The notes under the pieces: generated by a model | Database searches by the model: none | What the model was told of the DNA's origin: nothing | Seen by the model: the letters and a program-made list of their open reading frames with translations, nothing else | Made by a program: the position numbers and the translations under genes | From: Escherichia phage ESCO5 | DNA: 64,000 nucleotides | Strand: one strand, 5' to 3' | Sequence record: NC_047776.2 | Shown: piece by piece, positions 7,980-49,633 of the stretch | Layout: every line of letters begins with the position of its first letter | Numbering within the stretch: position 1 is the first letter of the stretch

Positions 7980-8043
7980 TGGAAATAGAGAGGGGGATTC
8001 CCCCTCTTCTTCCAATAGAATGGTCTAATAATAGGAGAGATAA

Positions 8044-21854: not shown

Positions 21855-22133
21855 TTAAAATGGTTCGTTAGTCTCCATCATATATTCTGCTTCTAGTTCT
21901 TCCATGTGCTTTCTAAATTGGAAAGCAATTTCTGCTACAGTTACATTTAAATCTTTTTCAAAAACTTCTGTAGATCCTTCATAAAAACGAATACCGTCAA
22001 TTAAAAGCCCTCCGTGGTAATCCCAATCGCTTTCACGAGAAAGTGGATTAGGTTCTTCATAATAGTAATCCACCTCCACAACCAAGGCTTTCCCGTTACG
22101 AGTGGTGTATTCAAAATCAAAAGTGTTAATCAT
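21855..22133 (-). CDS. hypothetical protein
   Basis: 92-aa ORF; stop overlaps the next start. Confidence 0.5.
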   Translation of the reverse strand: MINTFDFEYTTRNGKALVVEVDYYYEEPNPLSRESDWDYHGGLLIDGIRFYEGSTEVFEKDLNVTVAEIAFQFRKHMEELEAEYMMETNEPF

Positions 22134-23077
22134 TATAGCTCCTCAAATAAAAGTCTACGACGCTCATTCAACACATCAATGTGATAATGAGTCCTGACAT
22201 ACTTAGCTAATGCTAATCCTTTCTCCATGCAAACATCGGGAGCACTTAATAAGTATTCCGTAATATCTTTCCACTCGGAAGGTGTTTCAGCAAAGAATAA
22301 CAAATCTTTAAACTCTTGTGTATGATAATTCTCACGAGGAGAGCAGATTAAAGGTAAACCCTTAGCACCTGCCTCAAGAATTTTAAGATTGCTTTTTGCA
22401 TTATTAAACACGTTATCGATCAATGGTGCAAGACTGATTTGATGACCATCGTAAGATTCCATGTAGTAGGCATATGGTCTTACACCTTCATAAACACAAG
22501 TTGGTGCTACATTTTCCCTGATTAAAGACCATTCACGACTACTTAAAACTTCAGAATCCCTACGAAAACCACATATTGTAAGATCTTTACCAAAATCGGG
22601 CAAGATAGCCAAATCTTGTTTATGTGTTTCACTTCCAGCCCAGACTAATGGAGTTTTGGAGTAGCGATCACGGGTCAACACAAATTGACCTTCATCGTAA
22701 GGAAGTCCATTAGGGATTATGTGCACATTATCATTGTATTGTGAAAGTTCAACTTGCAAGGCAGGTGTCGTAGTTGTAACAAGATCACTGTGCTCTAAAA
22801 ACCATTTTAAATGTTCACGAATACCTGATTCAAAAATACCTTCTAACATGTGTCCTTTTGGAATAACTAAAGAGTCATCCAAATCCATAACCATTTTAAA
22901 GCCCAGGTTTTTAAGGGCTAAAAAGCCCTCTTTACCTTTTGTTGGCACTCCGTTAAAAACGAAAACGTTGTGTTTAGGTTGTGAAGAGAACTGCCTTGAG
23001 TAAGGCAGCACTACCCTATGGAAATCGCAGACACTATAATTGATTCCGTTACGATTGTCAAGAATTATTTGTCCCAT
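22133..23077 (-). CDS. glycosyltransferase (GT-B fold, group 1-like), paralog 1
   Basis: 314 aa; C-terminal KSNLKILEAGAKGLPLICS resembles the GT1 sugar-donor-binding motif; clear paralog of the next gene. Confidence 0.5.
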   Translation of the reverse strand: MGQIILDNRNGINYSVCDFHRVVLPYSRQFSSQPKHNVFVFNGVPTKGKEGFLALKNLGFKMVMDLDDSLVIPKGHMLEGIFESGIREHLKWFLEHSDLVTTTTPALQVELSQYNDNVHIIPNGLPYDEGQFVLTRDRYSKTPLVWAGSETHKQDLAILPDFGKDLTICGFRRDSEVLSSREWSLIRENVAPTCVYEGVRPYAYYMESYDGHQISLAPLIDNVFNNAKSNLKILEAGAKGLPLICSPRENYHTQEFKDLLFFAETPSEWKDITEYLLSAPDVCMEKGLALAKYVRTHYHIDVLNERRRLLFEEL

Positions 23078-23084
23078 ACTTCAC

Positions 23085-24032
23085 CTACAAACTTTCAATA
23101 ACCTGGCGTCGCAATTCGTTTGCATCTGCCAGATTATAATGTGTTCGAACATGTTCCGCTAAGAACAAGCCGCGATCTTCCCGATAGTTCGGATTGCGAA
23201 GAAGCTTAACAATTTCGTAATGCCATTCAGCTTTATTCTCTGCGTAAGCAACAGCGCGAGCATCTACAGGGTTAAAATAAGGTAATACCTTAGAACAAAC
23301 AATCGGAATACCTTTTGCCCCAGCTTCAAGGATTTTGAGATTACTTTTACAATTATTAAAATCATTGTCTACCAAAGGAGCTATAGCAATAGCATGACTT
23401 TCGTAAACACTCATGTAATTATCTAAATCTTTTACAGCAGCTTTATATTTGGCGTTTGGTAAATTTCTACGGATCTTAATCCACTCTTGCCCTGTGATAC
23501 TCTGCGATGCTTCATATCCTGCAATAGTAAGAAGTTCATCATCGAAAGTATTAGAGACTAGTCGTAAATCGGGTTCGTGACTAGCACCGCCAGCCCATAC
23601 AACAGGGGTACCGGATGAACGATCATTTGACAAAGTGAATTGTCCGCTATCAAAAGGAAGTGCATTTCGGATCACAACAACATTCCTATTTAAGTGACGG
23701 ATCTTATATGCCAAATATTCCGTAGTCACAATGACCACATCGGCAAGCTTAACCATAGCTACAATAGCATGAGTGTTTGACTCATATAAACTTGCTAAAT
23801 AATGTTCTGGATTAAGTTGGTAGAAATCATCTAAATCTACAACAATCTTAACACCTTGACGTTTCAGTGACAGAACATATTCTGCCCCTTTAGAATGAAT
23901 ACGGTTAAACACGACAACATCTTTCTTAGGCTGAAAATTATTGTTGTTAAATGGTATAACAATACGATGATAATCACAACCACTGTGAGGTTTTGCATCA
24001 ATTTTCAGTTTAGTCCATTTTTTATTTGACAT
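23085..24032 (-). CDS. glycosyltransferase (GT-B fold, group 1-like), paralog 2
   Basis: Shares VVWAG, APLVDN and KSNLKILEAGAKGIPIVCS with paralog 1. Start placed at the ATG 9 nt after AGGAGG (track ORF extends to 24071). Confidence 0.5.
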   Translation of the reverse strand: MSNKKWTKLKIDAKPHSGCDYHRIVIPFNNNNFQPKKDVVVFNRIHSKGAEYVLSLKRQGVKIVVDLDDFYQLNPEHYLASLYESNTHAIVAMVKLADVVIVTTEYLAYKIRHLNRNVVVIRNALPFDSGQFTLSNDRSSGTPVVWAGGASHEPDLRLVSNTFDDELLTIAGYEASQSITGQEWIKIRRNLPNAKYKAAVKDLDNYMSVYESHAIAIAPLVDNDFNNCKSNLKILEAGAKGIPIVCSKVLPYFNPVDARAVAYAENKAEWHYEIVKLLRNPNYREDRGLFLAEHVRTHYNLADANELRRQVIESL

Positions 24033-24705
24033 GTGCCAGTGCCTCCTCATAAGAAATTCGGATTTTCCCATTTTTAATATCTTCTAAAGACGCTTTATAT
24101 TCTTCCCAGTTAATGCCAATAGCAACTTCTTTCTCTTCTTTTGTCAGATTAGCAAAAGGCATAGGATTGTTTCCAAAAACATCGTCTGGGTGGATATAAG
24201 CCATGATACGAAGTGGACAAGGTATTGCCTGAATGCCCTGATTCAAACCAGCAGCTTTCAAACGGTGTACCCATTCAGCATCTTCAAAACCATAGCCGTG
24301 AGTGTAAGGGCGGAAATAACCCATCTTCTCAACAACGGCACGAGAATACATTGCAAATTGACACATTGCAAGTTCCCAGAGAATAACTTCTCCTTTACTC
24401 CCAACAACTTTATCTTTGAAATACTCCGGCATACCAAAGAAATCCCATCCTCCAGAGACAGCTTGATCTACAAAATATGTTTCCCATCCCTCCATGATTG
24501 GGTAGCAATCGTCGTCAAAAATAAACCAATAATCATAACCTTCTTCATAAAACTGGTGCATAAGTTCATTCCTGGCGTAAGCTACACCTTTACGATCTGG
24601 ATCGTTGAATACTCGAAAATCTGCATGTGGATCTGTTACAAGGTAGTCTTTAAGTGGACGGACACCTACAGTGATAACACCCACTCCGATTTTAATATTT
24701 TCCAT
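24022..24705 (-). CDS. glycosyltransferase-like protein (GT-A-like, DxD-type motif)
   Basis: 227 aa; FIFDDDCYP acidic motif after a beta-strand, typical of GT-A nucleotide-sugar transferases. Confidence 0.45.
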   Translation of the reverse strand: MENIKIGVGVITVGVRPLKDYLVTDPHADFRVFNDPDRKGVAYARNELMHQFYEEGYDYWFIFDDDCYPIMEGWETYFVDQAVSGGWDFFGMPEYFKDKVVGSKGEVILWELAMCQFAMYSRAVVEKMGYFRPYTHGYGFEDAEWVHRLKAAGLNQGIQAIPCPLRIMAYIHPDDVFGNNPMPFANLTKEEKEVAIGINWEEYKASLEDIKNGKIRISYEEALAHVK

Positions 24706-24713
24706 TTTCTCTC

Positions 24714-25277
24714 CTAAATAGTTTTACTGTGATCGTGACAGTGTAATAAATGATGTATAGACCGTTGAGGATTTGTTTGACCTAATCTGTAAATGTGAAA
24801 CAGATACATTCCCCGCATCAATCCTAACCTCTTTCCTTTTTCATGTAAAGTGCGAGAGAAAATTAAGTCGAATTGGATAGATTTTTCTTCGAAAGGAATT
24901 TCATTCCACAATGATTTTCTAAAAAGCAAAAAGAAACCTGCCAGAGGTGTTCCGAAAGGAACTTCTTCAACACTCACTTTATGATATTCTCTTGCAATCT
25001 TAGCATATTCTATATGGTTTAGAATATCTGGATCATCGTTAATTTGGTTAGAGAAAAGCTGATAACCACTACCTAACCTGTTACAAGTTGCACCTATTAC
25101 ATCAAAAGGCGGGTTTGACATAACAAGCTCTTCAAGCATAGATGGTTGATCAGGCAGGAGGAACATTGTATCGGTATCTCTTAAGCACACCCAACTATCA
25201 TCTGGAAGAACGGCAATAGCTTCATTGATAGCCTTGCCGATATTTCCTGTCAGATAGGGAGTAATATAATAAATCAT
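24714..25277 (-). CDS. glycosyltransferase-like protein (GT-A-like)
   Basis: 187 aa; N-terminal Rossmann-like IYYITPY... and LRDTDTMF motif. Confidence 0.4.
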   Translation of the reverse strand: MIYYITPYLTGNIGKAINEAIAVLPDDSWVCLRDTDTMFLLPDQPSMLEELVMSNPPFDVIGATCNRLGSGYQLFSNQINDDPDILNHIEYAKIAREYHKVSVEEVPFGTPLAGFFLLFRKSLWNEIPFEEKSIQFDLIFSRTLHEKGKRLGLMRGMYLFHIYRLGQTNPQRSIHHLLHCHDHSKTI

Positions 25278-25485: not shown

Positions 25486-25693
25486 TTACAACCTCCTTAA
25501 TAGCTACTGCACAGTTCTTACAAATACATTGACCTTTGTTCTTAGAAATTTCAATGTAAGGTTCATTTTCGTTTTCTCCGCGTCGTGAATCGTATATTAC
25601 AGTATTGAAGCAGACAACGCAAATGTTTTTAATAACAACATATTTTTGCACTTTTTGTTTAGTGCGAAAATTTACTTCAATGACTTCTCCCAT
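25463..25693 (-). CDS. small zinc-ribbon protein
   Basis: Start placed at the internal ATG that overlaps the upstream stop (TAATG), giving 76 aa; CVVC...CKNC pairs. Confidence 0.4.
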   Translation of the reverse strand: MGEVIEVNFRTKQKVQKYVVIKNICVVCFNTVIYDSRRGENENEPYIEISKNKGQCICKNCAVAIKEVVNENAWDQ

Positions 25694-25977
25694 CAGTGAA
25701 TCTCCCCTAAAATGTTGTTTTGAGACATTACTGCGGAGCATTCTACAGCATCATGAGTCCTTGCAAAACGCTCCCACAGCACAGCATCTACTTTAAGAAC
25801 CACACAAGGATAAATACTGTCGTTGATCATATCAATGCTATATTTATCTACATCCTTTTCATCTTCCATAAACAAAGTAGCGTATGCTTCCAAATGTTTA
25901 CGGGTGTAGTATACGTCCTCTTCGGTAAGACCGACAACCAGGTAACTTGCTACAACAACAGTATTATCTTCTTGCAT
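25693..25977 (-). CDS. hypothetical protein
   Basis: Start placed at the ATG after AAGGGGAG (MQEDNTV...), 94 aa; track ORF extends upstream into the hydrolase gene. Confidence 0.4.
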   Translation of the reverse strand: MQEDNTVVVASYLVVGLTEEDVYYTRKHLEAYATLFMEDEKDVDKYSIDMINDSIYPCVVLKVDAVLWERFARTHDAVECSAVMSQNNILGEIH

Positions 25978-25978
25978 T

Positions 25979-26500
25979 TTAACTCCCCTTTGGTAGATAG
26001 AAACCATGCACTTTATCTCGATAAACAAGACGCATATCACGCTCCCAGTGTGTCCTTATATTCCGTTTCTTGAAGTATAGAGCACCTTTAGTAACATCTA
26101 AAACAGACCGCAATTCAGGAAAATGTTTCTCTAAATAAAGTAAACGCTCCGCTATTGCTTTTGCTTCCTGCCATTTATCTTTCTCTGTCACGTTAAAAGT
26201 TTTCGCATATGAGAATTGCCCTTTCTGGAACAAGACTCCCTTGACTGTGTTAGGGAAGTAGGCATCATTTCTTCTGTTGATTACCACATTCCCAACGGCA
26301 TTCATTCCTTTTTTACCCAGACCGCGACCTTCTGCGTAAATTGCACAAGCTAATAGAATTTTATCATTATATTGCTTTGTACATTTGTGAACTACTTTAG
26401 CGGTTTTTACGTTTGCAGCTTCGGCTTTCGCCACAACAGGTGTAAATGTAAAAGCAGTTAAGGATAGTAACGCAACTGTTACAAAGTTTTTTATCAGCAA
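25979..26500 (-). CDS. secreted cell-wall hydrolase (SleB/Hydrolase_2-like); candidate endolysin or peptidoglycan-remodelling enzyme
   Basis: 173 aa; TTG start 7 nt after AAGGAGG; N-terminal signal-like segment (VALLSLTAFTFTPVVAKA); AIYAEGRG motif typical of SleB-type hydrolases. Confidence 0.55.
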   Translation of the reverse strand: MLIKNFVTVALLSLTAFTFTPVVAKAEAANVKTAKVVHKCTKQYNDKILLACAIYAEGRGLGKKGMNAVGNVVINRRNDAYFPNTVKGVLFQKGQFSYAKTFNVTEKDKWQEAKAIAERLLYLEKHFPELRSVLDVTKGALYFKKRNIRTHWERDMRLVYRDKVHGFYLPKGS

Positions 26501-26532
26501 ATTTTGCCTCCTTTTTAAGTTAACGAATTTCT

Positions 26533-26561
26533 AGTATAACACGATAGAGGCTTTATTGCAA
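26533..26561 (-). promoter_or_regulatory. sigma70-like promoter (TTGCAA-N17-TATACT) upstream of the hydrolase gene
   Basis: Read on the - strand; preceded by a GC hairpin (gagggggagaaatccccctc) downstream of the TerD stop. Confidence 0.4.
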
Positions 26562-26596: not shown

Positions 26597-27199
26597 TTAT
26601 GGACATTCATACCATTCTTTTTTACCACCGAAGGCCATTACCACATCGCAAATATCCAGACCAGCTTTACCTACACCATATGCTTTCAGCTTCCATTCTC
26701 CATCTTCACGAACCAGGGAAGCCACGTGGCAGATTGTGTTGCCAGCTACTTCAGGAGCCAGGAAGTCAAAATCCAGAATTTCCACATTACGCTCGGAGTC
26801 GAAGATTTTAAGCATACCTTCAGAAGCATGACCAAAACGTTTCAGACCTGTATCATCATCAATAGTCAGAACAAAGGCAATCTCTTGTGCATCAGGAGAG
26901 ATTTTAGCCAGAGTAATATCAATCTGCTCCATGCTGCCAGTTCCATCACGAACATCGTCACCAGCAAAGGTAGAACGTTCAGGATCAAACTTATTAGCAT
27001 AGCAAACCAGATGACGTGCAGACAGCATTTCAGGATTGCCAGCGGCATTGTGACGACAAACCAGTGCACTTACATCCAGATCCAGTTTAGAATCAGATTT
27101 CCAAGAGAACTCCAGGCGTAGTTCTTTCAGAGCCGGAGCAACTTTCTTCAGGGAAATTTTTTCGCTAGAGCCTTTTTTCAGGGAAATTTTATCAGTCAT
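26597..27199 (-). CDS. terD: TerD-family protein
   Basis: 200 aa; duplicated N-terminal ISLKK motif, LDLDVSALV, FAGDDVRDGTG, IAFVLTIDD and GEWKLKAYG closely parallel E. coli TerD. Confidence 0.8.
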   Translation of the reverse strand: MTDKISLKKGSSEKISLKKVAPALKELRLEFSWKSDSKLDLDVSALVCRHNAAGNPEMLSARHLVCYANKFDPERSTFAGDDVRDGTGSMEQIDITLAKISPDAQEIAFVLTIDDDTGLKRFGHASEGMLKIFDSERNVEILDFDFLAPEVAGNTICHVASLVREDGEWKLKAYGVGKAGLDICDVVMAFGGKKEWYECP

Positions 27200-27214
27200 C
27201 TTTTGTCTCCTCTA

Positions 27215-27484
27215 TTATTTAAGTGTAATACCAGTTACAGTCAATTCTACTTCCAAAAGCTTAGATGTGTTTTGGATTGATACTAATTGTGCATGATGGT
27301 TTAGTTCTACAGCAGAATAATCATTTTCCCCATCATCTACTTTTAAATAAACAATGATTTCACTAAGGTCTAAACCATTTTCGTCAAATGCATTTTCATA
27401 GACGAAAGTATCTCCTACATCCAAATCTTTAATGGTAAGGCATCGTTTATTTACTTTTTGCTCATCAATTTCGAAGTTTAACAC
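27215..27484 (-). CDS. small protein, paralog of 28506-28784, sits directly upstream of terD
   Basis: 89 aa; shares DLDVGDTF(V/M)Y, DENGLD and (T/N)ITLK with its paralog. Confidence 0.5.
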   Translation of the reverse strand: MLNFEIDEQKVNKRCLTIKDLDVGDTFVYENAFDENGLDLSEIIVYLKVDDGENDYSAVELNHHAQLVSIQNTSKLLEVELTVTGITLK

Positions 27485-27713
27485 TTCTTCCTCCTAATAT
27501 TATCTCCGGTTTATATATACGAAGAATTATAGCATTTTCATTTTCTTTGTCAACCCATTCTTCATAATCAGGCCATACATGAATCTCTACTCTACTTACA
27601 ATATCTTCCATTCGCACAGTCCCAATGAAATACTCTTTGAGACTGCACATAATGAAAGCTTCTCTCTCGCGCCAATAATTTTCTATGACTTGAGAGGCAA
27701 GCTCGTCGATCAT
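27465..27713 (-). CDS. hypothetical protein
   Basis: 82-aa ORF with overlaps at both ends. Confidence 0.4.
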   Translation of the reverse strand: MIDELASQVIENYWREREAFIMCSLKEYFIGTVRMEDIVSRVEIHVWPDYEEWVDKENENAIILRIYKPEIILGGRSVKLRN

Positions 27714-28504
27714 TTTTTAGCACCTACTTTAACAACCCACTCTCCGAACTCTTCAGATAAGAGTTTGTCATAAAGCTCTGAATCTGTCAAGTCTAAATCT
27801 TTAATGCCAATAAAACCAACATTATCATAAGCATTTGCCAGTTCTTTCAGGAAGCCAAACTTCTCATTACCAACGCCAACCATGAACCAATAAATAGGTT
27901 TATTCTTATTCTCTTCAATAAGACGACGAACAGCACTAGGATCACCATTCTCACCATCCGTCTGGAAGAATACAACACCAGGGGTAACGTCAGCACCTGG
28001 TTCAGACACAGCTACAACCTTTTCACGCTCTACAGATACTGTTTCAGTTTTACCAAGCAGACGATTAAAGAAGCCTTTCTTTGGAGCCTCTTCTTGTACC
28101 ACTTGTTTAGTGGTAATATATTTGGTAACAGTGCCAAAATACTCATCGTAGATATCTGCCATTACAGGGGCGTAATTTGTTCCACCTCCGATACGAACAT
28201 TACGCATACATTTACCAACATAGTCATCGTAAACGTCTGCTGTTGCTGGAGTAAGCTCTTGGGAACTCGTATTGAAGGCCCACATATCAATTTGTTGATT
28301 ATCGTCGAACAGCATACCAAAAGGAAGCAGTTTACCTACAAAATCACTCACTACCCCACTAGAATATAGACCATGCATACTACCAGAAATATCTAGAGCA
28401 CATGCTACACGAAGAACAATCTTACCTTCATTCAGGTTCTTATTCTTTTTCAGAGAGAAAGCAAGGTTTTCTTGACGTTTTTTCAGGCTGATTTTATCGG
28501 ACAT
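27710..28504 (-). CDS. TerD-N-terminal motif plus von Willebrand factor A domain protein (TerY/TerF-like)
   Basis: 264 aa; N-terminus MSDKISLKK as in TerD; vWA MIDAS motif LDISGSM, then GGGTNY and FFQTDGENGD. Confidence 0.7.
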   Translation of the reverse strand: MSDKISLKKRQENLAFSLKKNKNLNEGKIVLRVACALDISGSMHGLYSSGVVSDFVGKLLPFGMLFDDNQQIDMWAFNTSSQELTPATADVYDDYVGKCMRNVRIGGGTNYAPVMADIYDEYFGTVTKYITTKQVVQEEAPKKGFFNRLLGKTETVSVEREKVVAVSEPGADVTPGVVFFQTDGENGDPSAVRRLIEENKNKPIYWFMVGVGNEKFGFLKELANAYDNVGFIGIKDLDLTDSELYDKLLSEEFGEWVVKVGAKK

Positions 28505-28505
28505 A

Positions 28506-28784
28506 TTATTTCTCCTTCTTAAGTGTAATGTTGGTAACTTCTAAATCTACTTCCACCATATTTGTATCTGGCGGGATGCAATGAGTATAGCCTCGTTGTG
28601 CTAGTGATCCATTAATACAAATCGCACTGTTTGTGGAATTTTTAATGAACACCAAGTTACGGTAGGTATCCAACCCTGCGTCTTCATAGGCATCATAATA
28701 CATGAATGTGTCCCCTACGTCAAGATCTTCGAAAGCAATAGGTAAATCCTGACCTTTTTCTTCTTGAATATTGAATCTAAACAC
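28506..28784 (-). CDS. small protein, paralog of 27215-27484, sits directly upstream of the TerD-vWA gene
   Basis: Start placed at the GTG 5 nt after GAGGAGG so that the product aligns with the paralog (VFRFNIQEE vs MLNFEIDEQ); track ORF extends to 28850. Confidence 0.45.
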   Translation of the reverse strand: MFRFNIQEEKGQDLPIAFEDLDVGDTFMYYDAYEDAGLDTYRNLVFIKNSTNSAICINGSLAQRGYTHCIPPDTNMVEVDLEVTNITLKKEK

Positions 28785-29340
28785 GCATACCTCCTCTACC
28801 AATTTTGAAGCCCAAATCGTAAGCTTCCTTAGTAATCTTTTGTAACTCACTTATAGGAAGTGTTACAAGAGGATCATCTTCTTCAATTTCCATCTTGTCA
28901 TCTTCTGTTTCAATGAGAGTATTATGCACTTTGTGATAAGGGTTGTCAACACGTTTAAACTTATTCTTTTCTGTGCTGAAAAAACAATCTGGATCTTCTT
29001 CACCATCACCCCAACCTTGATTAGGATCTCCGTCAGATTGTTCTGTAGGGATTTCACCTGTAAAGTACTCTTCCAGCACCATAGCAATACCGTCCCTTGG
29101 ATTTGAGGAATGCATTAAATCACAAACCTTACCCCAATCCATAGCCCATTCGAACCGTTCACGAACGCCATTTTCATCCTCTTTTCCAGAGAAAACACAA
29201 CCATAACTATCATAGTTGCCATACATCTCTTCAATAACAACACCGTCTTTCAAAAGAAAGAGGTAGCAAGGTGATCCGTCGAAAGAAGTAGAAAGGGCAG
29301 CTTTGCCCGATTCTTTGCACAAAAAACTAAAACAACCCAT
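28777..29340 (-). CDS. hypothetical acidic protein
   Basis: 187-aa ORF, Asp/Glu-rich centre. Confidence 0.5.
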   Translation of the reverse strand: MGCFSFLCKESGKAALSTSFDGSPCYLFLLKDGVVIEEMYGNYDSYGCVFSGKEDENGVRERFEWAMDWGKVCDLMHSSNPRDGIAMVLEEYFTGEIPTEQSDGDPNQGWGDGEEDPDCFFSTEKNKFKRVDNPYHKVHNTLIETEDDKMEIEEDDPLVTLPISELQKITKEAYDLGFKIGRGGMRV

Positions 29341-29543
29341 TACAAACCCTCCTTCAGATTATCAAGAGCTACAGTGGTTTCACAAAATTCTCCATAAGCT
29401 TTATGATGTTCCAGAAAAGCTTCGGGTCCACCCCAGTCATTATCTTGTGTATTCCAACCATCAATAAAAGCATCTTCAATGATTGTGATCAGTTCTTGTC
29501 GGGTTAACTGGATAATATTAGGATCGTTATCGTAGTTAAACAT
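29340..29543 (-). CDS. hypothetical protein
   Basis: 67-aa ORF; stop overlaps the next start. Confidence 0.45.
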   Translation of the reverse strand: MFNYDNDPNIIQLTRQELITIIEDAFIDGWNTQDNDWGGPEAFLEHHKAYGEFCETTVALDNLKEGL

Positions 29544-29709
29544 CTTCTTCCTCCTCTAAAATATGAAACCCGTAATTACAATAGTCCTGAAAGGTTTCGT
29601 GCGCAAGATCTTCTATATCCTCTTGAGACATATCATCTTCAATTTCGATATCCACAACCTCATTGCATCCACACCAAGCAGTTTCAATATTCACTCGTAA
29701 TATTTTCAT
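29536..29709 (-). CDS. hypothetical small Cys-containing protein (below the ORF-track cutoff)
   Basis: 57 codons (MKILRVNIETAWCGCNEVVD...); TAATG overlap with the upstream stop. Confidence 0.3.
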   Translation of the reverse strand: MKILRVNIETAWCGCNEVVDIEIEDDMSQEDIEDLAHETFQDYCNYGFHILEEEEDV

Positions 29710-29906
29710 TACTCCTCCTCCTCATTGAAGTCAATATCTGCAAGGAGTTCGAATTTACGGAAGTTACGACAACCTTCATAAATATAACAATCACGACAAA
29801 CTGCTAGAACACTTGGGGGATATATGCCTCCCATCGGTGCGAATCGTTTTTCGTCATCATAACGGACACCAATGTCTTCATCAATTATATAGATACGGAT
29901 TCTCAT
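29709..29906 (-). CDS. hypothetical protein
   Basis: 65-aa ORF, Cys-rich. Confidence 0.45.
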   Translation of the reverse strand: MRIRIYIIDEDIGVRYDDEKRFAPMGGIYPPSVLAVCRDCYIYEGCRNFRKFELLADIDFNEEEE

Positions 29907-31015
29907 TTACCAAGCCCTCGTTTCACAGCAGCTACCATCCCGTCTTCCAGAGATTGAACTTCATTAATATAATCAACACGAGCAGCACGGGCTTCCGTAT
30001 TGATGCGGTTAGTTTCTTCCAACATCTTAACCAAGTTTTCCTGATCGTGACGCAGAGTTTCAATATCCAACACTTGACGGTTAGCCAGTGCTGCTGCTTC
30101 GATCTGATTCTGTGTGGCAAGATCGCTACCTAGTTTAATTGCCAGGTTAAATTCATCAAGAACGTTATTCTGCGTCTCTGCTGCTTTCATTTGACGTAAG
30201 CTCTCGATATACATTGAGAAGTTAGCAGAGTAAGCAGGAATAACATTATTTACTATGTTACGCGCAGATCGCATTAAGCTTGCAGAAACTTTTTGCATAC
30301 CTTGTACACGCGGTCCCATTTGGACACACAGTAGGCGCAACGCCTTTAAATCTGCAATACGAATCTCCAGGAGATCCAAAGTATCTCGGATCACTTGTCG
30401 CTGTTCTACGGCATCTTCTGGAAGAGCAGCCAAAGCTTGTTCTTCTTTTTCATAGGTTGCTGTTAGAAGCTGCATATCTCGGTTCAAACTTGCAGCATAT
30501 TGTCCAATAGCTTGGTGTAGCTTTTCAAGATATACCAAGGAATCTTCTTCTTTGCGAATATCCATTTGAAGGTTCTTTACCAACTCTTCAATACGGTTAT
30601 TAACATTATCAAACTCCCCAAACAGGTCTTCTTTCATACCCATAACTTTTTTAATGAGTTTAGTAATACCCTTGCTTTGTTTAATAGAGTTTGGATCAAG
30701 TTGTTTTGCCTGTTTAATCAAGGCTGTGAGTCGTTCACTCATCTGATCGCCTTGATTACTACGTTGATGTTTTAACACCTCGGCATTCAAGGAACGCAAG
30801 GTTGTTCCTGCCTCTGCCCCAATCTCTTCGATCTCTTGTCGGGTCATAGAAGGTAAAACTGGAACTTCTTGCGGTGCTGCTGGTGCATAAACAGGACTGG
30901 CATCTAACACACTTGGAGCAAATACAGATTTACTTGCATCTGTTGTTGCAGCGAATACACTCATTTCAGACTTCTTCTGACCACCAGTAGCTGCTTTTAA
31001 AAATGGACTTGTCAT
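29903..31015 (-). CDS. TelA-like (toxic anion resistance family) helical protein, tentative
   Basis: 370 aa, predicted long helical/coiled-coil protein with Pro/Ala-rich N-terminus; size, architecture and Ter-gene context suggest TelA/KlaA; PspA-like is an alternative. Confidence 0.4.
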   Translation of the reverse strand: MTSPFLKAATGGQKKSEMSVFAATTDASKSVFAPSVLDASPVYAPAAPQEVPVLPSMTRQEIEEIGAEAGTTLRSLNAEVLKHQRSNQGDQMSERLTALIKQAKQLDPNSIKQSKGITKLIKKVMGMKEDLFGEFDNVNNRIEELVKNLQMDIRKEEDSLVYLEKLHQAIGQYAASLNRDMQLLTATYEKEEQALAALPEDAVEQRQVIRDTLDLLEIRIADLKALRLLCVQMGPRVQGMQKVSASLMRSARNIVNNVIPAYSANFSMYIESLRQMKAAETQNNVLDEFNLAIKLGSDLATQNQIEAAALANRQVLDIETLRHDQENLVKMLEETNRINTEARAARVDYINEVQSLEDGMVAAVKRGLGK

Positions 31016-31602
31016 TCTTCATTCTCCTCTTCTGCATCTCTTATATATGGTGAAACACCGTACTCTTTAGCTACTTTAACCCAATCATCCCATTTATACA
31101 ACCATAATTTTCCTTCAGTTCCTTCTTTATCTGATTTCAACCACATGTTAGGTTGCTTGCCTGGGTACATGCGATTAGGTTTACGATTATAACCTCTAAC
31201 ACATCTTGTCGCAAACCTATCTACCAGAACAAGAACATATTTATATTCGTGGTTCAACGGCTCTTTGGAAGTGGCTTTAGGATTAGCTCCTAATTCTGCT
31301 GCCAGTTTTTGCCAATGAGCACCGTGTCTACTAAACTTACCCATACAACCATCAATAGCATGAGCAATTTCGTGCTTCATTGTATCCACGATCATATCTC
31401 TTGTAGAGTTCTTATGCAAGTGCCAATTTACAACAACAATTTTATCTCGGTAGTTGCACCAACCGAAAGAGTTATTAACTTTGTTTCTAACACAAGCTTT
31501 ATATCCTGCTTCACGTAACATGTTGTAGTAAACAGGAAAATCTTCTTTTATTTCCTGCATCACTTCCCACCACAAGAGTTGCAAGTCTCTCTCGGTATGC
31601 AT
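31012..31602 (-). CDS. SprT-like zinc metallopeptidase domain protein
   Basis: 196 aa; HEIAHAI (HExxH) followed by a further His. Confidence 0.45.
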   Translation of the reverse strand: MHTERDLQLLWWEVMQEIKEDFPVYYNMLREAGYKACVRNKVNNSFGWCNYRDKIVVVNWHLHKNSTRDMIVDTMKHEIAHAIDGCMGKFSRHGAHWQKLAAELGANPKATSKEPLNHEYKYVLVLVDRFATRCVRGYNRKPNRMYPGKQPNMWLKSDKEGTEGKLWLYKWDDWVKVAKEYGVSPYIRDAEEENEE

Positions 31603-31605
31603 AAC

Positions 31606-32199
31606 TTACACCTTAAAAGCGAAATGCGTGGTCGTGGCTTCAAAATCAGGGCCAGATAAACTTGCACTGAAATCTGAAATATTTGTAATTAAAAAGCTTT
31701 TATGCATACCTAACACAGCCACGCTTTCAATATCTTCTACTAACATTTCAATCATGTTAGAAACATGGCTGAACGTAGAGTTTTGTTTTTTGATGGTGTA
31801 GAAAGAAAGATTCCCACCTGCTATATAAGACACCTCTTCAAAATCTTTAATCGTATATTGTGTGCCATCAGTAAAGAAAATGGTAGCTTTATTAGTAGCA
31901 CGTTTCTTGTTTTTTGGTCCTTTTTTACGTTTACTGCGAGTAGGCAAACCGTTTGGAAATACCGTAGCTACAAATTCTTCAGGAGAAACCTCCTTACCGA
32001 AATCATAACCGTAAGAAACAGCGTCTATAAACTCGTCGTCTTCATTTTTAAAATAATGAAAATAGGGCCAATTTGAGAGATTATCGAGCATCTTATGCTC
32101 ATCCACAGCAGAGAACGTATCCCTCAAAGCACGTGTGATTTGCAAAGCATTAGGCAAACTTTTAACACCTGTAATGGAAGTACGAATAGAAATTGTCAT
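31606..32199 (-). CDS. hypothetical protein
   Basis: 197-aa ORF. Confidence 0.5.
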   Translation of the reverse strand: MTISIRTSITGVKSLPNALQITRALRDTFSAVDEHKMLDNLSNWPYFHYFKNEDDEFIDAVSYGYDFGKEVSPEEFVATVFPNGLPTRSKRKKGPKNKKRATNKATIFFTDGTQYTIKDFEEVSYIAGGNLSFYTIKKQNSTFSHVSNMIEMLVEDIESVAVLGMHKSFLITNISDFSASLSGPDFEATTTHFAFKV

Positions 32200-32213
32200 T
32201 GTTTTTCTCCTTA

Positions 32214-32651
32214 TTAACGTCGCTTGCTACGAGATGAACTCTTTTTACTTAAAGGACTATTGTAAGATTTACGAGTTGTATAGCTACTATTTGTTTTAAA
32301 AGTTTGTCTCGGCTTTTCATAAGTTTTTATCTCTTGTTTAGGCTTACTATAAAAATTAGTTTTCGGTTTAGGTGTATTATAATGCTTATTAATAATCGTT
32401 CTGTTATCGTTATAATCCCCACTGCTACGATTACTACCGCCACTCATCATATGCCCTAACAACATACCTGTAGCAAACTCACCAACACCGCTACTACTAG
32501 AACCGCCACCATTGTTGATAATAGTTGTATCTCCGTCAGATCCTTGTTGAGCGTATTGTTGAGGAGGTTGTTGGTATTGTGCAGGATTTGTTTCATCCTC
32601 GCAAGCTGTTAAAAAGATACAACCAATTAAAATCAGGGCTAGTTTTTTCAT
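32214..32651 (-). CDS. putative lipoprotein, Gln/Gly/Ser-rich with basic C-terminus
   Basis: Start placed at MKKLALILIGCIFLTAC (signal peptide with lipobox LTAC); track ORF extends to 32726. Confidence 0.5.
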   Translation of the reverse strand: MKKLALILIGCIFLTACEDETNPAQYQQPPQQYAQQGSDGDTTIINNGGGSSSSGVGEFATGMLLGHMMSGGSNRSSGDYNDNRTIINKHYNTPKPKTNFYSKPKQEIKTYEKPRQTFKTNSSYTTRKSYNSPLSKKSSSRSKRR

Positions 32652-32838
32652 ATTTGCTTTCCTCGTTTTGGCTATTAATACATCTGTGTTTGAAATCTCC
32701 AGAGAAGCAATAAAGTTGCTCTCCATCTCGGTATAAACTCACTTTACTGCCGTTGATTACGCTTGTCAATACAAAAATTACAACAAACAACCCTATTGCA
32801 AAACAAATATTTTCAAACACAACCAACAAGTATTTCAT
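32593..32838 (-). CDS. hypothetical small membrane protein
   Basis: 81-aa ORF with a hydrophobic N-terminal segment; overlaps the lipoprotein start by about 58 nt, so uncertain. Confidence 0.3.
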   Translation of the reverse strand: MKYLLVVFENICFAIGLFVVIFVLTSVINGSKVSLYRDGEQLYCFSGDFKHRCINSQNEESKYEKTSPDFNWLYLFNSLRG

Positions 32839-33185
32839 TTTAAAAATACCTCATCATCAGTTTCATTATCCCAGAAGAACAAGTCCCAACCATTCGGATC
32901 ATTCCATTTAGCTGCTGGAGAAGTCCATATTTGCTCGATATCAATATTCAAAACTTCACCGTTTCGTTTTGAAACAGCTTTAGTTAATTCCCAACGGGAT
33001 ACAGGCTCCACTTCCCCTGAACCACTCCCACAACAAGCTACCACATTAGGAGGCAAATTAATTGGATCTTTGGTCACAATCATAACGCTTACCCCAGGGT
33101 AAACTTTTGAAAGATAATCTAAAACGTAATCCACATCACCAGATAAATCCCAAACAAGTTCTTGAATTTCATCAAAATTATTCAT
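32835..33185 (-). CDS. hypothetical acidic protein
   Basis: 116-aa ORF with RBS AGGAGAG. Confidence 0.5.
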   Translation of the reverse strand: MNNFDEIQELVWDLSGDVDYVLDYLSKVYPGVSVMIVTKDPINLPPNVVACCGSGSGEVEPVSRWELTKAVSKRNGEVLNIDIEQIWTSPAAKWNDPNGWDLFFWDNETDDEVFLK

Positions 33186-33191
33186 AAGTCT

Positions 33192-33222
33192 CTCCTATAA
33201 AATAGCCTCCCGAAGGAGGCTC
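33192..33222 (-). terminator. terminator-like hairpin after terC
   Basis: gcctccttcgggaggc followed by tattttata on the - strand. Confidence 0.4.
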
Positions 33223-33227
33223 ATCTA

Positions 33228-34202
33228 TTAAACAGCAGCTTCTTCTTTTTCAGGGAAGATAAAGCTTGCAATAACACCAAGAGATAATGTGCCTAGAACA
33301 ATCATCAGACTTACGTTAGGGGAAATATCATGCGGGAGGAATGACCACTTGGCATGAAGTGTTTCACCGAACGGGTGATACATAAGTTTAGCACCAACAA
33401 ACACCAGAACCACAGCAACAGCTTTCTCTAAGTGAACCAGATATTTCACAGCTACACTTAACACAAAGAAAAGTGCACGTAAACCAAGAACAGCCATCAG
33501 CATTGCAGAATAAACTAGCAGAGGTTCTTGTGTCACACCGATTACAGCCGGAACTGAATCAAAAGAGAAGACAATATCTGTAAGCTCAATAACAAACACA
33601 CAAAGAAGAGCAGGAGTTGCATATTTAATACCATTCTTAATGGTAATGAACTTTTCACCATCTAGTGCATTGTGCACAGGCAGAACTTTACCTACTAAAC
33701 GAACAGCCCAATGCTTAGAGTAATCAATATCCTCTTCTTCGTCACCACCTTTGATGATAGCCACGGCAGACCAAGCTACAATCAAACCGAACAACACTTG
33801 GACCGACCAATGAAGGTTAAACAAAGCGGTCCCTGCTGCAACAAAAATACCTCGGAAGACAATGGCTCCTGCAATCCCCCAAAGTAAAATCTTATGTTGA
33901 AGATGTGTGCTCTTAATTCCAAAGCTTGCAAAAATTGCCATGAATACCATCAGGTTATCTACAGAAAGACTCTTTTCCAACACATAGCCACTTAGGAAAA
34001 GCGCGGCAAACTCTTTACCATGTTCTACCCAAATGAATGCGTAATATCCTAAAGCTAAAGCAATCCAAAAAACAGACCAAAGCAAAGCAGATTTAATTCC
34101 AATTTCTTTATTCTCTTTATGACCAAAGAAATCGATACCAATAGACAATGCCAAAATACCAACTAAAACAACTACATCAATAATTGGGAAACCGAGTTGC
34201 AT
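33228..34202 (-). CDS. terC: TerC-family integral membrane protein
   Basis: 324 aa, multi-pass hydrophobic; twin signatures EKSLSVDNLMVF and DIVFSFDSVPAV typical of the TerC family. Confidence 0.75.
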   Translation of the reverse strand: MQLGFPIIDVVVLVGILALSIGIDFFGHKENKEIGIKSALLWSVFWIALALGYYAFIWVEHGKEFAALFLSGYVLEKSLSVDNLMVFMAIFASFGIKSTHLQHKILLWGIAGAIVFRGIFVAAGTALFNLHWSVQVLFGLIVAWSAVAIIKGGDEEEDIDYSKHWAVRLVGKVLPVHNALDGEKFITIKNGIKYATPALLCVFVIELTDIVFSFDSVPAVIGVTQEPLLVYSAMLMAVLGLRALFFVLSVAVKYLVHLEKAVAVVLVFVGAKLMYHPFGETLHAKWSFLPHDISPNVSLMIVLGTLSLGVIASFIFPEKEEAAV

Positions 34203-34220
34203 TCTTTTCTCCTCTCTTTG

Positions 34221-34280
34221 CGGGGAACTATTCCCCGCTTCATTTGATATATATCTTACTCTTTTTAAGAACTATGTCAA
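34221..34280 (-). promoter_or_regulatory. promoter plus 5' stem-loop cassette upstream of terC
   Basis: On the - strand: TTGACA (34280-34275), -10-like TAAGAT/TATATA, then hairpin gcggggaa-cta-ttccccgc, RBS and ATG at 34202. Confidence 0.45.
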
Positions 34281-34283
34281 CAC

Positions 34284-34505
34284 TTATTTTGTTGAATGAG
34301 AGGAAAAGATTCCTCGTAATACCGCCAGAATAAACGAAACACAAACCACGGTCCAGAAGGTTACTGGGACAGTGATATCTGCATGACCCATAACTTCAGC
34401 AACATAGTTGTAAGCCAGCAACAGTAACCAAGCTGGAATCAAACTAAGCATAAAAGCAATAACAAAAAAGCTTACCACCGCAATAATACCTGCAAAAACA
34501 CCCAT
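34284..34505 (-). CDS. small membrane protein
   Basis: 73 aa with two or three hydrophobic helices. Confidence 0.5.
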   Translation of the reverse strand: MGVFAGIIAVVSFFVIAFMLSLIPAWLLLLAYNYVAEVMGHADITVPVTFWTVVCVSFILAVLRGIFSSHSTK

Positions 34506-44724: not shown

Positions 44725-45087
44725 TTAACCTAAACACATACGTGCGATCAGACCTTGAATTAGTTTATCTGCTTCTTCTCGATCATAGTCGGTATCTTCT
44801 ATACCACCATCTTCGTCACGATAAACTTTACCTTCCAGGTACCCAGCATCGATCAAACCAATAATCAAATCGAACTGCCAACAAGAATTACCGAAAGGAC
44901 GTTTTCCACTGAAACTGTCTTCTTCTTCCCAAAGTGTAGAGAGCAGTCGTCTGAAATATTCACGCACAGTAACAGTGCCAAGATCATCGTCTTCAAAAAC
45001 AACATCTAAAGCATCTGGTTCAGCTTTATCTACAACAGGCACATAACGTTGACCATTAATAACAACATCTACAATCGTTTCTCTCAT
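44725..45087 (-). CDS. hypothetical acidic protein
   Basis: 120-aa ORF. Confidence 0.5.
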   Translation of the reverse strand: MRETIVDVVINGQRYVPVVDKAEPDALDVVFEDDDLGTVTVREYFRRLLSTLWEEEDSFSGKRPFGNSCWQFDLIIGLIDAGYLEGKVYRDEDGGIEDTDYDREEADKLIQGLIARMCLG

Positions 45088-45446
45088 TTTTCCTCCTTCT
45101 TGTATTCTAAGAACATGTCAACTTCATAAGCTGCCCGTTCATTAAATTTACTAGGATCTACTAAAATAAAAAGTTGTTTATTTATATCTTGAAACTCTTT
45201 TACTACAATGTAAAGGTGTTTCTTACAAGAGAAGCCTGTTGCTTGATAAGCATCGCCCCAATCATCCACACCTTTTAATGTTTCTACATACTTACATTTT
45301 ATTTTATCTTTACCGTCTTGGTAAAGTGCTTCACCTCCGAACCATGTGAAGAATTTAGTGCGATCTGCCCCAACCTTAAAGCCGTCACGAGCAAAAACAC
45401 CAGTAGAGGCTAATAACAGCAAGGCAAACAGCACTTTTCTCATCAC
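45084..45446 (-). CDS. hypothetical secreted protein
   Basis: 120 aa; N-terminal signal-like segment (MMRKVLFALLLLASTGVFA). Confidence 0.5.
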   Translation of the reverse strand: MMRKVLFALLLLASTGVFARDGFKVGADRTKFFTWFGGEALYQDGKDKIKCKYVETLKGVDDWGDAYQATGFSCKKHLYIVVKEFQDINKQLFILVDPSKFNERAAYEVDMFLEYKKEEK

Positions 45447-49631: not shown

Positions 49632-49633
49632 AT

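Follow-up and report, generated by a model that had tools for sequence, protein, structure and literature searches.

Sec-mediated access to the wall, independent of a holin, is known from Lys44 of the Oenococcus phage fOg44 and from the SAR endolysins, such as P1 Lyz and R21 of phage 21. These enzymes are located outside the membrane before lysis and are restrained until the membrane is de-energised. In the SAR proteins the Gly/Ala-rich anchor stays uncleaved, and pinholins are their partners.

Less is described for phage proteins of the SleB-like (Hydrolase_2) type. The CB7 homologue has a predicted signal peptide and is reported to be toxic when expressed in E. coli, the toxicity data not being displayed (PMC7344957), and it is absent from the virion proteome. 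The same authors regard the overlapping 65-aa membrane protein of Certrevirus as a strong class II holin candidate (PMC7344957). In PAK_P3 the transcript of gp151 (‘cell wall hydrolase domain protein’) is equal at 3.5 and 13 min, and the transcripts of the structural genes rise 2^5 to 2^13-fold (S5 Table, PMC4933390); its authors put gp151 forward as an auxiliary metabolic gene that would account for the build-up of cell-wall precursors (PMC4933390). For phAPEC8-type phages two lytic proteins are stated in genome notes (PMC10793346, PMC12210895). The published notes count the hydrolase as one of the two and do not mention its signal peptide, TTG start or promoter; one paper on these phages detected no signal peptides. 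In the literature searched we found no experimental work on the Phapecoctavirus or the T5 protein and no Phapecoctavirus transcriptome.

Here we analyse this gene in Escherichia phage ESCO5 (NC_047776.2), within a stretch of 64,000 nucleotides, hereafter the window. The window is Phapecoctavirus DNA, 99.3% identical to published phages, and a tRNA scan of it found none. Dozens of GenBank records already contain the gene under the name ‘putative cell wall hydrolase SleB’ or ‘endolysin’; its product shares 99.4% identity with the protein annotated as ‘putative cell wall hydrolase’ in phage Ro121lw. The same gene, 173 aa long and located after TerD, is present in phAPEC8, Ro121lw, nieznany, ESCO13 and vB_Ec-G1 (EcG1_134) with 97.7–99.4% protein identity. 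Features of the locus are collected in Table 1.

Table 1. Positions in the window of the hydrolase gene, its signals and its neighbours
Feature	Position	Strand	Details
TerD-domain gene, upstream	26597..27199	-	PF02342, E = 3e-28; separate transcription unit
G/C hairpin, 8 bp, GAAA loop	26562..26581	-	-16.9 kcal/mol, z = -3.56; weak T tail
Sigma-70-type promoter-like site	26533..26561	-	TTGCAA 26556-26561, 17 nt, TATACT 26533-26538; scan and conservation
Shine-Dalgarno AAGGAGG	26507..26513	-	From sequence; 6-nt spacer CAAAAT, TTG at the 7th base after the motif
SleB/CwlJ-type (Hydrolase_2) wall hydrolase CDS	25979..26500	-	173 aa, TTG start, TAA stop; ORF list and sequence
Predicted Sec signal peptide, codons 1-26	26423..26500	-	n-region MLIK, h-region NFVTVALLSLTAFTFT, c-region PVVAKA
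Glu57 codon GAA	26330..26332	-	YAEGRG aligned to SleB YGESRG (phmmer, 4f55 and 4fet)
Hydrolase_2 catalytic domain	25997..26317	-	Pfam envelope residues 62-168; structural domain ~38-170
Acidic 94-aa ORF, downstream	25693..25977	-	ATG 1 nt past the hydrolase stop (TAA-A-ATG); phrog_16257

The product is a small, basic, single-domain protein, which we assign as a putative peptidoglycan hydrolase of the SleB/CwlJ family. It matches PF07486 with E = 2e-17 and 64.1 bits against a gathering cut-off of 27, over profile positions 3-100 of 100, and the PHROG 938 ‘endolysin’ profile, which is 2185 positions long, with 1e-18. The AlphaFold2 model has a pLDDT of ~76-97 over residues 31-170 (means of 10-residue blocks) and of ~90 on the domain. 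When compared with the PDB by Foldseek, this model retrieves the SleB catalytic domains 4fet and 4f55 only, with a probability of 1.00 and target TM-scores of 0.69-0.73. Together with the n-h-c layout of the N-terminus considered below, these matches bear out the initial annotation, which described a SleB-like hydrolase with a Sec-type N-terminal segment.

Glu57 corresponds to the residue that is catalytic in Bacillus SleB according to the SleB structures (Li et al. 2012, as cited in PMC12210895). It is invariant, along with 48 further positions, in 20 homologues of 56-98% identity, and its equivalent is present in the T5-like, rV5-like, Seunavirus and JG004 homologues. Cys40 and Cys52 are likewise invariant in the 20 closest homologues. 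By homology, the enzyme is predicted to cleave glycan strands in the manner of a lytic transglycosylase, using Glu57. The score against the SleB equivalog TIGR02869 is 52.5 bits, below its cut-off of 236.5. The N-terminal peptidoglycan-binding domain of SleB is absent, with Hydrolase_2 as the only Pfam match and residues 1-26 taken up by the signal segment. Judged from these profile comparisons, the 173-aa protein is not an orthologue of spore SleB.

The invariant catalytic Glu and 48 further positions, with clear purifying selection, make an inactive relic very improbable. We consider a virion-associated lysin for wall penetration to be just as far-fetched. PHROG families labelled ‘endolysin’ do include virion proteins, as the phrog_938 profile illustrates, and Hydrolase_2 domains are found within large multidomain phage proteins; however, the protein considered here consists of one domain in 173 aa, carries a predicted signal peptide and is encoded outside the structural module. 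The virion assignment was rejected on the absence of the CB7 homologue from the virion proteome.

The N-terminus carries one Lys (K4), a hydrophobic stretch from F6 to T20, Pro21 at position -6, then A24-K25-A26 followed by E27. Hydropathy reaches its maximum of 2.18 at residues 6-16 (11-residue window). Judged by rules, the segment has the n-h-c organisation of a signal peptide with small residues at -3 and -1, no lipobox and no twin-arginine motif. As there is no Cys before residue 40, the protein is not a lipoprotein, and as there is no RR motif, it is not a Tat substrate. The 20 homologues preserve the h-region and differ in the c-region, where small residues are nonetheless retained at -3/-1; a hydrophobic N-terminal segment is found in 131 of the 150 nearest family representatives. 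The AlphaFold2 pLDDT is below 50 for residues 1-31, which indicates that the segment is not packed on the domain.

The N-terminus resembles a cleavable Sec signal more than a SAR anchor, since the hydrophobic core is short (~15 residues), Pro stands at -6 and the small -3/-1 residues are kept. Cleavage is probable at A26|E27 or at A28|A29, both sites being predicted. The core is also unusually well conserved and contains Ala, Ser or Thr at 8 of 19 positions and no Gly; such a strongly conserved Thr/Ser/Ala-rich core would fit a membrane-tethered (SAR-like) hydrolase as well. Of the two forms initially proposed, secreted or SAR, the one with a cleavable signal is the likelier.

The TTG start codon occupies 26498-26500 on the minus strand, and its placement 7 nt after AAGGAGG, as initially described, is confirmed by inspection. 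Within codons 1-30 the one other possible start is a GTG at codon 23, and no ribosome-binding site precedes it. In 4-5 diverged relatives (58-75% protein identity) the TTG start is kept, and GGAGGC of the ribosome-binding site is invariant across 5 lineages. Non-ATG starts also occur in homologues, with GTG in rV5-like phages and TTG in Seunavirus. Because the start is non-ATG, gene callers truncate the hydrolase in some relatives and the signal peptide is lost.

Conservation is high in the 5′ UTR and the first 60 codons. Over this region the consensus RNA fold is weak (-5 kcal/mol, one compensatory pair), and the single-sequence fold of the 5′ region is less stable than those of shuffled sequences (z = +1.1). 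An RNA switch or other translational control by RNA structure was ruled out on these two results.

A promoter of the gene's own had been proposed at TTGCAA-N17-TATACT. These hexamers are present and conserved, with the TG of an extended -10 preceding TATACT, and would rather serve a long operon whose first gene is the hydrolase gene. In the scan, 9/12 promoter matches number 25 in 5 kb against 13.7 expected, a single match being not significant. In the 4-5 diverged relatives, the -35 hexamer, the 17-nt spacing and a TGn plus TAnnnT -10 are kept and the flanks vary. The extended motif GCCTCT...TGnTAnnnT occurs once in the whole window, by which a repeated, phage-wide promoter class marked by it is ruled out. 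The T4-type late promoter TATAAATA is found in 6 copies in the window against 5.5 expected, none of them near the hydrolase gene.

The promoter-like site lies directly after the G/C hairpin, inside a 96-bp intergenic gap. The window has two G5..C5 hairpins, this one among them, against 0.04 expected, it is conserved in the 5 lineages, and the pairing is preserved by compensatory changes in relatives. The hairpin is probably the terminator of the upstream TerD transcription unit. On the other side, the hydrolase gene is followed by small ORFs, glycosyltransferases and replication genes with no recognisable terminator between.

The location among Ter-like and replication genes, noted initially from the letters of the window, is upheld by Pfam matches to TerD, vWA-TerF-like and TerC proteins and by the glycosyltransferases, primase/helicase and DNA polymerase downstream. 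The order TerD, hydrolase, small ORFs, glycosyltransferases, primase/helicase is conserved, and the succession of TerD and hydrolase is also seen in metagenomic relatives. The acidic 94-aa ORF next to the hydrolase, translationally coupled to it, is kept in 4 of 5 lineages and absent from L013. A role for it as obligatory partner, inhibitor or chaperone of the hydrolase finds no support, given its loss from L013 and the lack of a family annotation.

Such a context might also suggest a function other than lysis. The hydrolase might condition the periplasmic wall early in infection or serve an auxiliary metabolic function, with peptidoglycan turnover, cell enlargement or an interplay, in superinfection or envelope stress, with the neighbouring Ter (in rV5-like phages, rII) modules as options. 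We regard this as quite unlikely. It accords with the consistent position of the gene among early or replication genes, seen in four phage groups unrelated to one another: T5.083 lies by tRNA genes, the rV5-like gene by rIIA/B, the phAPEC8-like gene after TelA, vWA-TerF and TerD, and the JG004 gene by ligase and dCMP deaminase. Signal-bearing or membrane-anchored homologues occupy such regions in T5-like, rV5-like and PAK_P1/KPP10-like phages, and a further endolysin candidate is known in each of the T5-like, rV5-like and phAPEC8-like groups. Transcription of PAK_P3 gp151 from 3.5 min and the auxiliary-metabolic proposal of its authors (PMC4933390) point the same way. However, the argument is one of context, the PAK_P3 link is its authors' hypothesis, and a wall cutter that assists lysis would be found in the same surroundings if the lysis genes were scattered, as in T4. 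The toxicity of the over-expressed CB7 homologue also fits a lytic enzyme.

A broader form of the proposal, which we hold to be unlikely, would have large virulent phages with Gram-negative hosts (T5-like, rV5-like, phAPEC8-like and PAK_P1/KPP10-like) share a functional class of its own, an early, low-dose, exported or anchored lytic transglycosylase of the SleB type that conditions the sacculus and is not the terminal endolysin. If true, it would act through peptidoglycan turnover or precursor release, through pre-weakening that determines when lysis occurs, or in a superinfection or envelope role connected with the adjacent Ter or rII modules, and the canonical endolysin would stay exchangeable between lineages.

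The hydrolase was initially described as the only peptidoglycan hydrolase of the window, away from any lysis cassette and far from a recognisable holin. This agrees with tblastn, which found nothing in the window that matches the GH24 lysozyme of relatives, the spanins, rIIA or the Vequintavirinae small membrane proteins. Among the small membrane proteins of the window none matches a holin family in Pfam or PHROG. No pinholin or holin partner adjoins the hydrolase, the neighbouring ORFs being soluble; the nearest small two-transmembrane-segment protein is encoded at 34284-34505, ~8 kb away.

It had also been suggested that the rest of the genome be searched for holin and spanin genes, a separate lysis cassette being named as what would speak against the initial reading. 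This is partly the case: relatives encode a separate lysozyme and spanins, not clustered with each other, outside the region covered by the window. In the relative vB_Ec-G1, a GH24 lysozyme of 166 aa (PF00959) is soluble, has no transmembrane segment and shares 47% identity with T4 e; its catalytic E/D/T positions can be picked out by eye in a comparison with T4 lysozyme. An overlapped Rz/Rz1-type i/o-spanin pair adjoins its terminase gene, ~80 kb from the lysozyme gene. A holin is the piece that the search did not yield: neither annotation nor profile searches point to a canonical large-hole holin in the window or among the annotated vB_Ec-G1 genes, and homologues of rIIA and of the Vequintavirinae small membrane proteins are found nowhere in vB_Ec-G1. 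Lysozyme and hydrolase are represented by 63 records each at at least 95% identity and by 68 and 67 records, respectively, at 60-90%, these being totals in which records are not matched to one another. Since relatives carry the T4 e-type lysozyme and spanins, the hydrolase is a putative second muralytic enzyme and not the sole candidate for lysis. Since no holin is identified in these genomes, the role of main lysis enzyme cannot be assigned to the T4 e-type lysozyme over the hydrolase.

It is possible, though doubtful, that the hydrolase is itself the principal endolysin, either exported by Sec independently of a holin or of SAR type; it would build up in or at the membrane under restraint and be unleashed by a small pinholin-like protein encoded elsewhere, with the lysozyme redundant or serving another purpose. 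The hydrolase is common to two subfamilies in which the other wall enzyme varies (T5-type peptidase, lysozyme-like, GH24; PMC7344957), a Hydrolase_2 protein is the sole annotated endolysin candidate in some T4-like phages (pf16, Cr30), and the strong conservation of the hydrophobic core and the lack of a detectable canonical holin would suit such a role. So would the two-transmembrane-segment protein that follows the hydrolase in Seunavirus and Mydovirus and the class II holin candidate of Certrevirus. However, the window has no adjacent gene of this kind, the next gene encoding a soluble acidic protein, and the corresponding Vequintavirinae proteins and rIIA lack detectable homologues in the window and in vB_Ec-G1. 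The conservation of small residues at -3/-1, with Pro at -6, speaks for a segment that is cleaved to free the enzyme and not for one that anchors it. Moreover, a complete T4 e-type lysozyme is maintained clade-wide, with record counts like those of the hydrolase.

We therefore favour, with a confidence slightly above even, a Sec-exported periplasmic enzyme of the lytic-transglycosylase type that is made early or in the middle of infection at low dose and pre-weakens the wall or assists lysis. Host RNA polymerase would transcribe the gene from the conserved sigma-70-type promoter. This promoter heads a glycosyltransferase and DNA-replication operon, and transcription would therefore fall in early or mid infection; we infer this timing from the likeness of the promoter to the consensus, from the operon around it and from one distant homologue. 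The conserved weak TTG start would keep the dose of the enzyme low. Sec would export the precursor, and signal peptidase I would cut off ~26-28 residues, leaving a mature hydrolase of ~16 kDa free in the periplasm, where a Cys40-Cys52 disulfide may form. The enzyme would thus reach the sacculus without a holin, and at its low dose would nick and pre-weaken the wall. Once the membrane is de-energised at lysis, it would add to the destruction of the wall, working beside the spanins and the cytoplasmic T4 e-type lysozyme, whose genes lie in other parts of the genome.

Some counter-points are to be mentioned. An active wall hydrolase released early should endanger the infected cell. The hydrolase is also conserved across Vequintavirinae and Stephanstirmvirinae, with the second enzyme varying by genus, which hints at more than an auxiliary role.

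The practical value of these observations is modest, and the gene is an ordinary one. The label ‘endolysin’ was given without evidence, although the phage has a T4 e-type lysozyme. For cloning as an enzybiotic, residues 1-26 or 1-28 should be removed and toxicity should be expected. For the therapeutic phages of the rV5- and phAPEC8-like groups, in which no holin is identified, the hydrolase, probably exported, with a conserved weak start and a promoter of its own, is a cheap knock-out target for the question of holin-independent access to the wall.

Compared with Lys44 and the SAR endolysins, the enzyme belongs to another catalytic family, theirs being muramidases or T4-lysozyme-like. Unlike in the SAR endolysins, the c-region here looks cleavable, no pinholin gene is adjacent, and the phage group also has a cytoplasmic lysozyme. 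The Hydrolase_2 proteins of Ladybird act on B. subtilis from outside and not on E. coli, and so have no bearing on periplasmic action (PMC7807722).

Bacillus SleB (4F55, 4FET), a germination-specific lytic transglycosylase, shares the fold and the catalytic Glu motif, with 25-26% identity in the structural alignment. In contrast to SleB, the phage protein has no peptidoglycan-binding domain, and the host of the phage has neither a spore cortex nor the muramic-delta-lactam substrate.

Proteins of the T5.083 type are Hydrolase_2 members of 36-37% identity with a cleavable-type signal, and their genes lie in the early region and apart from those for T5 lysis; they differ in their length of 149 aa, in the lack of the H-x-C...C pair and in the tRNA-region context. 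JG004 PJG4_029 is a Hydrolase_2 protein of 35% identity from a nucleotide-metabolism and replication region. Its N-terminus is an uncharged or acidic transmembrane segment (METLEALVLSILLAFIGMFL) and not a classic signal peptide, and host and lineage are other. PAK_P3 gp151 we take to be a distant homologue, linked to the JG004 gene by annotation, size and synteny. Classic signal peptides are found in the T5-like (MKAALLLVAALTFSFSSQA|S), rV5-like (KIFAIILSALLSLPVVA|A) and Seunavirus homologues.

The nearly full-length likeness extends to the SleB-like proteins of Vequintavirinae (CB7_83, rV5, PVP-SE1/Seunavirus, Mydovirus and Certrevirus), at ~33-36% identity. They share with the hydrolase the signal peptide, the H-x-C...C pair ahead of Y-x-E-x-R-G, the non-ATG starts and a location away from the structural module. 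The next gene in Seunavirus and Mydovirus encodes a 51-57-aa two-transmembrane-segment protein, and rIIA/rIIB come after that; in Vequintavirus rIIA/rIIB directly succeed the hydrolase gene, and in Certrevirus only the small membrane protein gene does, because rIIA/rIIB are absent. Unlike in these phages, the hydrolase gene here is placed after the Ter module and leads into soluble small ORFs and glycosyltransferases.

The initial annotation had read 25979-26561 as a gene for a signal-bearing SleB-like hydrolase with a TTG start, an AAGGAGG and its own TTGCAA-17-TATACT promoter, lying outside a lysis cassette; one minus-strand gene with these upstream signals is indeed what the segment holds. 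Within its first 30 codons the ORF offers only one alternative start, a GTG at codon 23 that lacks a ribosome-binding site. Promoter matches of 9/12 occur 25 times in 5 kb versus 13.7 expected in the scan, and a single match is not significant alone. We argue for promoter function from conservation. In four other lineages (58-75% protein identity) the -35 hexamer, the 17-nt spacing and the TGn + TAnnnT -10 are kept together with GGAGGC and the TTG start, with neighbouring bases varying, and the upstream hairpin is kept with compensatory changes. It is one of two G5..C5 hairpins in the whole 64 kb (0.04 expected); the second, at 7992-8004, lies within a terminator-like site ending a minus-strand gene block. 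Five lineages show unusually high conservation at synonymous sites of codons 1-60: where residues are identical, the fraction of identical codons is 0.78 in codons 1-21 versus ~0.4 in codons 61-173, and no stable RNA structure was found that would explain this 5'-end conservation.

Features of the hydrolase locus and of related loci (window coordinates unless a phage is named)
Feature	Position	Strand	Remarks
Hydrolase ORF	25979-26500	-	173 aa, TTG start
Ribosome-binding site AAGGAGG	26507-26513	-	6-nt spacer to start
Promoter-like site	TTGCAA 26556-26561, 17 nt, TATACT 26533-26538	-	TG extended -10; sequence scan
8-bp G/C hairpin, GAAA loop	26562-26581	-	-16.9 kcal/mol, z = -3.56; abuts promoter-like site
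TerD	26597-27199	-	part of Ter-like module
vWA-TerF-like	27710-28504	-	
TelA	within 26597-34505	-	"tellurite resistance" in vB_Ec-G1; TelA by Pfam in the relative L013
TerC	33228-34202	-	PF03741 at 3e-40
73-aa protein, two transmembrane segments	34284-34505	-	adjoins TerC
Small two-transmembrane protein (pinholin-like)	KE22 (L010) 3024-3197		
Small two-transmembrane protein (pinholin-like)	KNP2 (L011) 3033-3188		

The phAPEC8-like myoviruses of the genus Phapecoctavirus (Stephanstirmvirinae) have genomes of about 150 kb. Many Escherichia phages of this genus are 98.5-99.3% identical to the window over the 3 kb that surround the gene; their records call the product "putative cell wall hydrolase", "cell wall hydrolase SleB" or "endolysin", and the window corresponds to roughly 65.8-129.8 kb of the complete relative vB_Ec-G1. 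Upstream lie the TerD, vWA-TerF-like, TelA and TerC genes. Downstream, three small ORFs without assigned function (the first begins 1 nt past the hydrolase stop) are followed by four glycosyltransferase genes, primase/helicase, methyltransferase and DNA polymerase. No strong terminator is found downstream before about 12.8 kb, so the promoter heads an operon, not a single gene. In metagenomic relatives the order TelA, vWA-TerF, TerD, hydrolase, small ORFs, glycosyltransferases where present and primase/helicase recurs.

The neighbourhood has further features. A full Ter-like module (26597-34505, minus strand) is carried by a virulent coliphage, and the small ORFs 27215-27484 and 28506-28784 (minus strand) interleaved with it are paralogues, both matching phrog_11278. 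The 82-aa ORF 27465-27713 contains a perfect 12/12 sigma-70 consensus with TG (TTGACA, 16 nt, TATAAT; 27526-27553, minus strand), from which the 89-aa ORF 27215-27484 and TerD would be transcribed as a short unit predicted to end at the hairpin upstream of the hydrolase. The four consecutive glycosyltransferase genes (22100-25277, minus strand), one of which (24022-24705) faintly resembles TET-associated and beta-glucosyl-HMC glycosyltransferases, may serve DNA or envelope glycosylation.

The protein scores 64 bits with Pfam Hydrolase_2 (PF07486), whose cut-off is 27. Among solved structures, only Bacillus SleB catalytic domains are related to it, and SleB is the sole Foldseek match in the PDB (probability 1.00, target TM-score 0.69-0.73) of an AlphaFold2 model confident across most of residues 31-170. 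Alignment of YAEGRG with YGESRG places Glu57 on the catalytic glutamate of SleB; Glu57 and 48 other positions, Cys40 and Cys52 among these, are invariant in 20 homologues. A SleB/CwlJ-type wall enzyme, with activity predicted, is thus a very secure assignment. This coliphage protein is not an orthologue of spore SleB, since it fails the TIGR02869 equivalog model (52.5 vs 236.5 bits) and, unlike spore SleB, has no N-terminal peptidoglycan-binding domain.

Residues 1-26 contain a single Lys (K4), a hydrophobic core F6-T20, Pro21 at -6 and A24-K25-A26 preceding E27, and the model leaves residues 1-31 unpacked against the domain. The absence of Cys before residue 40 and of a twin arginine excludes a lipoprotein and a Tat substrate, respectively. 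A hydrophobic N-terminal segment is normal for the family (131/150 nearest representatives; 3632 members), and signal peptides of textbook form are seen in the T5-like, rV5-like and Seunavirus homologues. The c-region differs from one homologue to the next (VVAKA, VVAQA, VIGIA, VTATA, AHSA and others) with small residues kept at -3/-1, which is the signature expected of a signal peptidase I site. Export is therefore quite probable on these sequence features, with a cleavable Sec signal more likely than a signal-anchor-release (SAR) anchor. We treat this step as a prediction, given the unusually strong conservation of the hydrophobic core and a published study of Phapecoctavirus phages in which signal peptides were not detected. 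The conservation of the core lies partly at the nucleotide level.

A homologue search of the window found no second wall hydrolase, spanin or rII gene, and no holin family was detected among its small membrane proteins (578-841, 34284-34505, 49622-49810, 50598-50762). The relative vB_Ec-G1 encodes a soluble GH24 lysozyme of 166 aa (PF00959), which shares 47% identity with T4 e, lacks a hydrophobic N-terminus and has E/D/T catalytic positions that can be recognised by eye. It also encodes an overlapped i-spanin/o-spanin pair directly preceding the terminase gene, so that the separate lysis apparatus which the initial annotation had named as speaking against its reading is in part present. Lysozyme and SleB-like gene occur in 63 records each at >=95% identity and in 68 vs 67 at 60-90%, and genome notes list two lytic proteins, one PF00959 and one PF07486 (PMC10793346, PMC12210895). 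We consider it unlikely that the SleB-like enzyme is the principal endolysin, whether of SAR or Sec type.

In vB_Ec-G1 (L002, 40035-40662) the start of the o-spanin ORF, which has a lipobox-like MTGC, seems to lie at 40318 within the i-spanin gene; GenBank annotates only a truncated 60-aa piece (40480-40662). Further predicted envelope proteins of the window are 578-841 (+), 32214-32726 (-), 45084-45446 (-), 49622-49810 (+), 50598-50762 (+) and 60908-61198 (+); none matches a holin family. Two of them are small early-region proteins, each with two transmembrane segments; two others carry a signal peptide, and one has a lipobox (LTAC). The remaining one, an 87-aa membrane protein of the tail module (phrog_1322), may be a holin candidate.

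Hydrolase_2 domains occur in 1221 phage records (tblastn). Vequintavirinae homologues have a signal peptide and GTG or TTG starts. In Vequintavirus rIIA/rIIB come directly after the gene, which overlaps rIIA in "nimi"; in Seunavirus and Mydovirus a small protein (51-57 aa, two transmembrane segments) is encoded in between. Neither this protein nor rIIA has a detectable homologue in Phapecoctavirus sequences. The gene is truncated in some GenBank records, probably a systematic mis-annotation that the non-ATG start brings about: the "endolysin" CDSs annotated within L010 2477-3019 (Salmonella phage KE22) and L011 2501-3028 (Klebsiella phage KNP2) begin at internal codons, at positions 2636 and 2684, dropping the signal peptide, which KE22 encodes from a TTG start. 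The 5' end of the KNP2 gene directly adjoins an HNH endonuclease gene.

The homologue of Pectobacterium phage CB7 (Certrevirus) is reported to have a signal peptide, to be toxic when expressed in E. coli and to overlap a class II holin candidate (PMC7344957). CB7 has spanins adjoining the terminase gene and no rIIA/rIIB homologues, and its SleB-like protein is absent from the virion proteome; a virion lysin or a relic is very improbable here, with the active site intact. T5.083 of T5-like phages is a signal-bearing, early-region homologue, and that of Pseudomonas phage JG004 has an N-terminal transmembrane segment and lies among ligase and dCMP-deaminase genes. PAK_P3 gp151, matched by annotation, size and synteny, not alignment, has the same transcript level at 3.5 and 13 min and was proposed by its authors as an auxiliary wall-degrading enzyme (PMC4933390). 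Non-lytic wall conditioning or auxiliary metabolism would suit such a gene; set beside the CB7 toxicity, we regard it as rather improbable. The pattern is the same in each of these groups: the gene of a putatively exported SleB-type enzyme lies in the early or replication region. The T5-like, rV5-like and phAPEC8-like groups also have a different enzyme that could serve as endolysin.

We suggest that transcription of the gene by host RNA polymerase sets in early or in the middle of infection and that the conserved weak TTG start limits the amount of enzyme. Sec would export the precursor, and cleavage by signal peptidase I would leave a free, basic periplasmic enzyme of about 16 kDa, possibly with a Cys40-Cys52 disulfide. 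In the periplasm it would cleave glycan strands with no holin required, pre-weakening the sacculus at low dose and adding to wall destruction once the membrane is de-energised. We hold this explanation as a whole to be somewhat favoured; its accessory, pre-positioned lysis role, taken by itself, is plausible but tentative.

Last but not least, the system is not of a new kind: dozens of near-identical genomes already carry an annotation of this gene, and signal peptide and toxicity were reported for a homologue. What we add is the conserved hairpin-promoter-RBS-TTG architecture, the reasons to expect a cleavable signal, and the recurrence across families of putatively exported SleB-type enzymes encoded in the early region.
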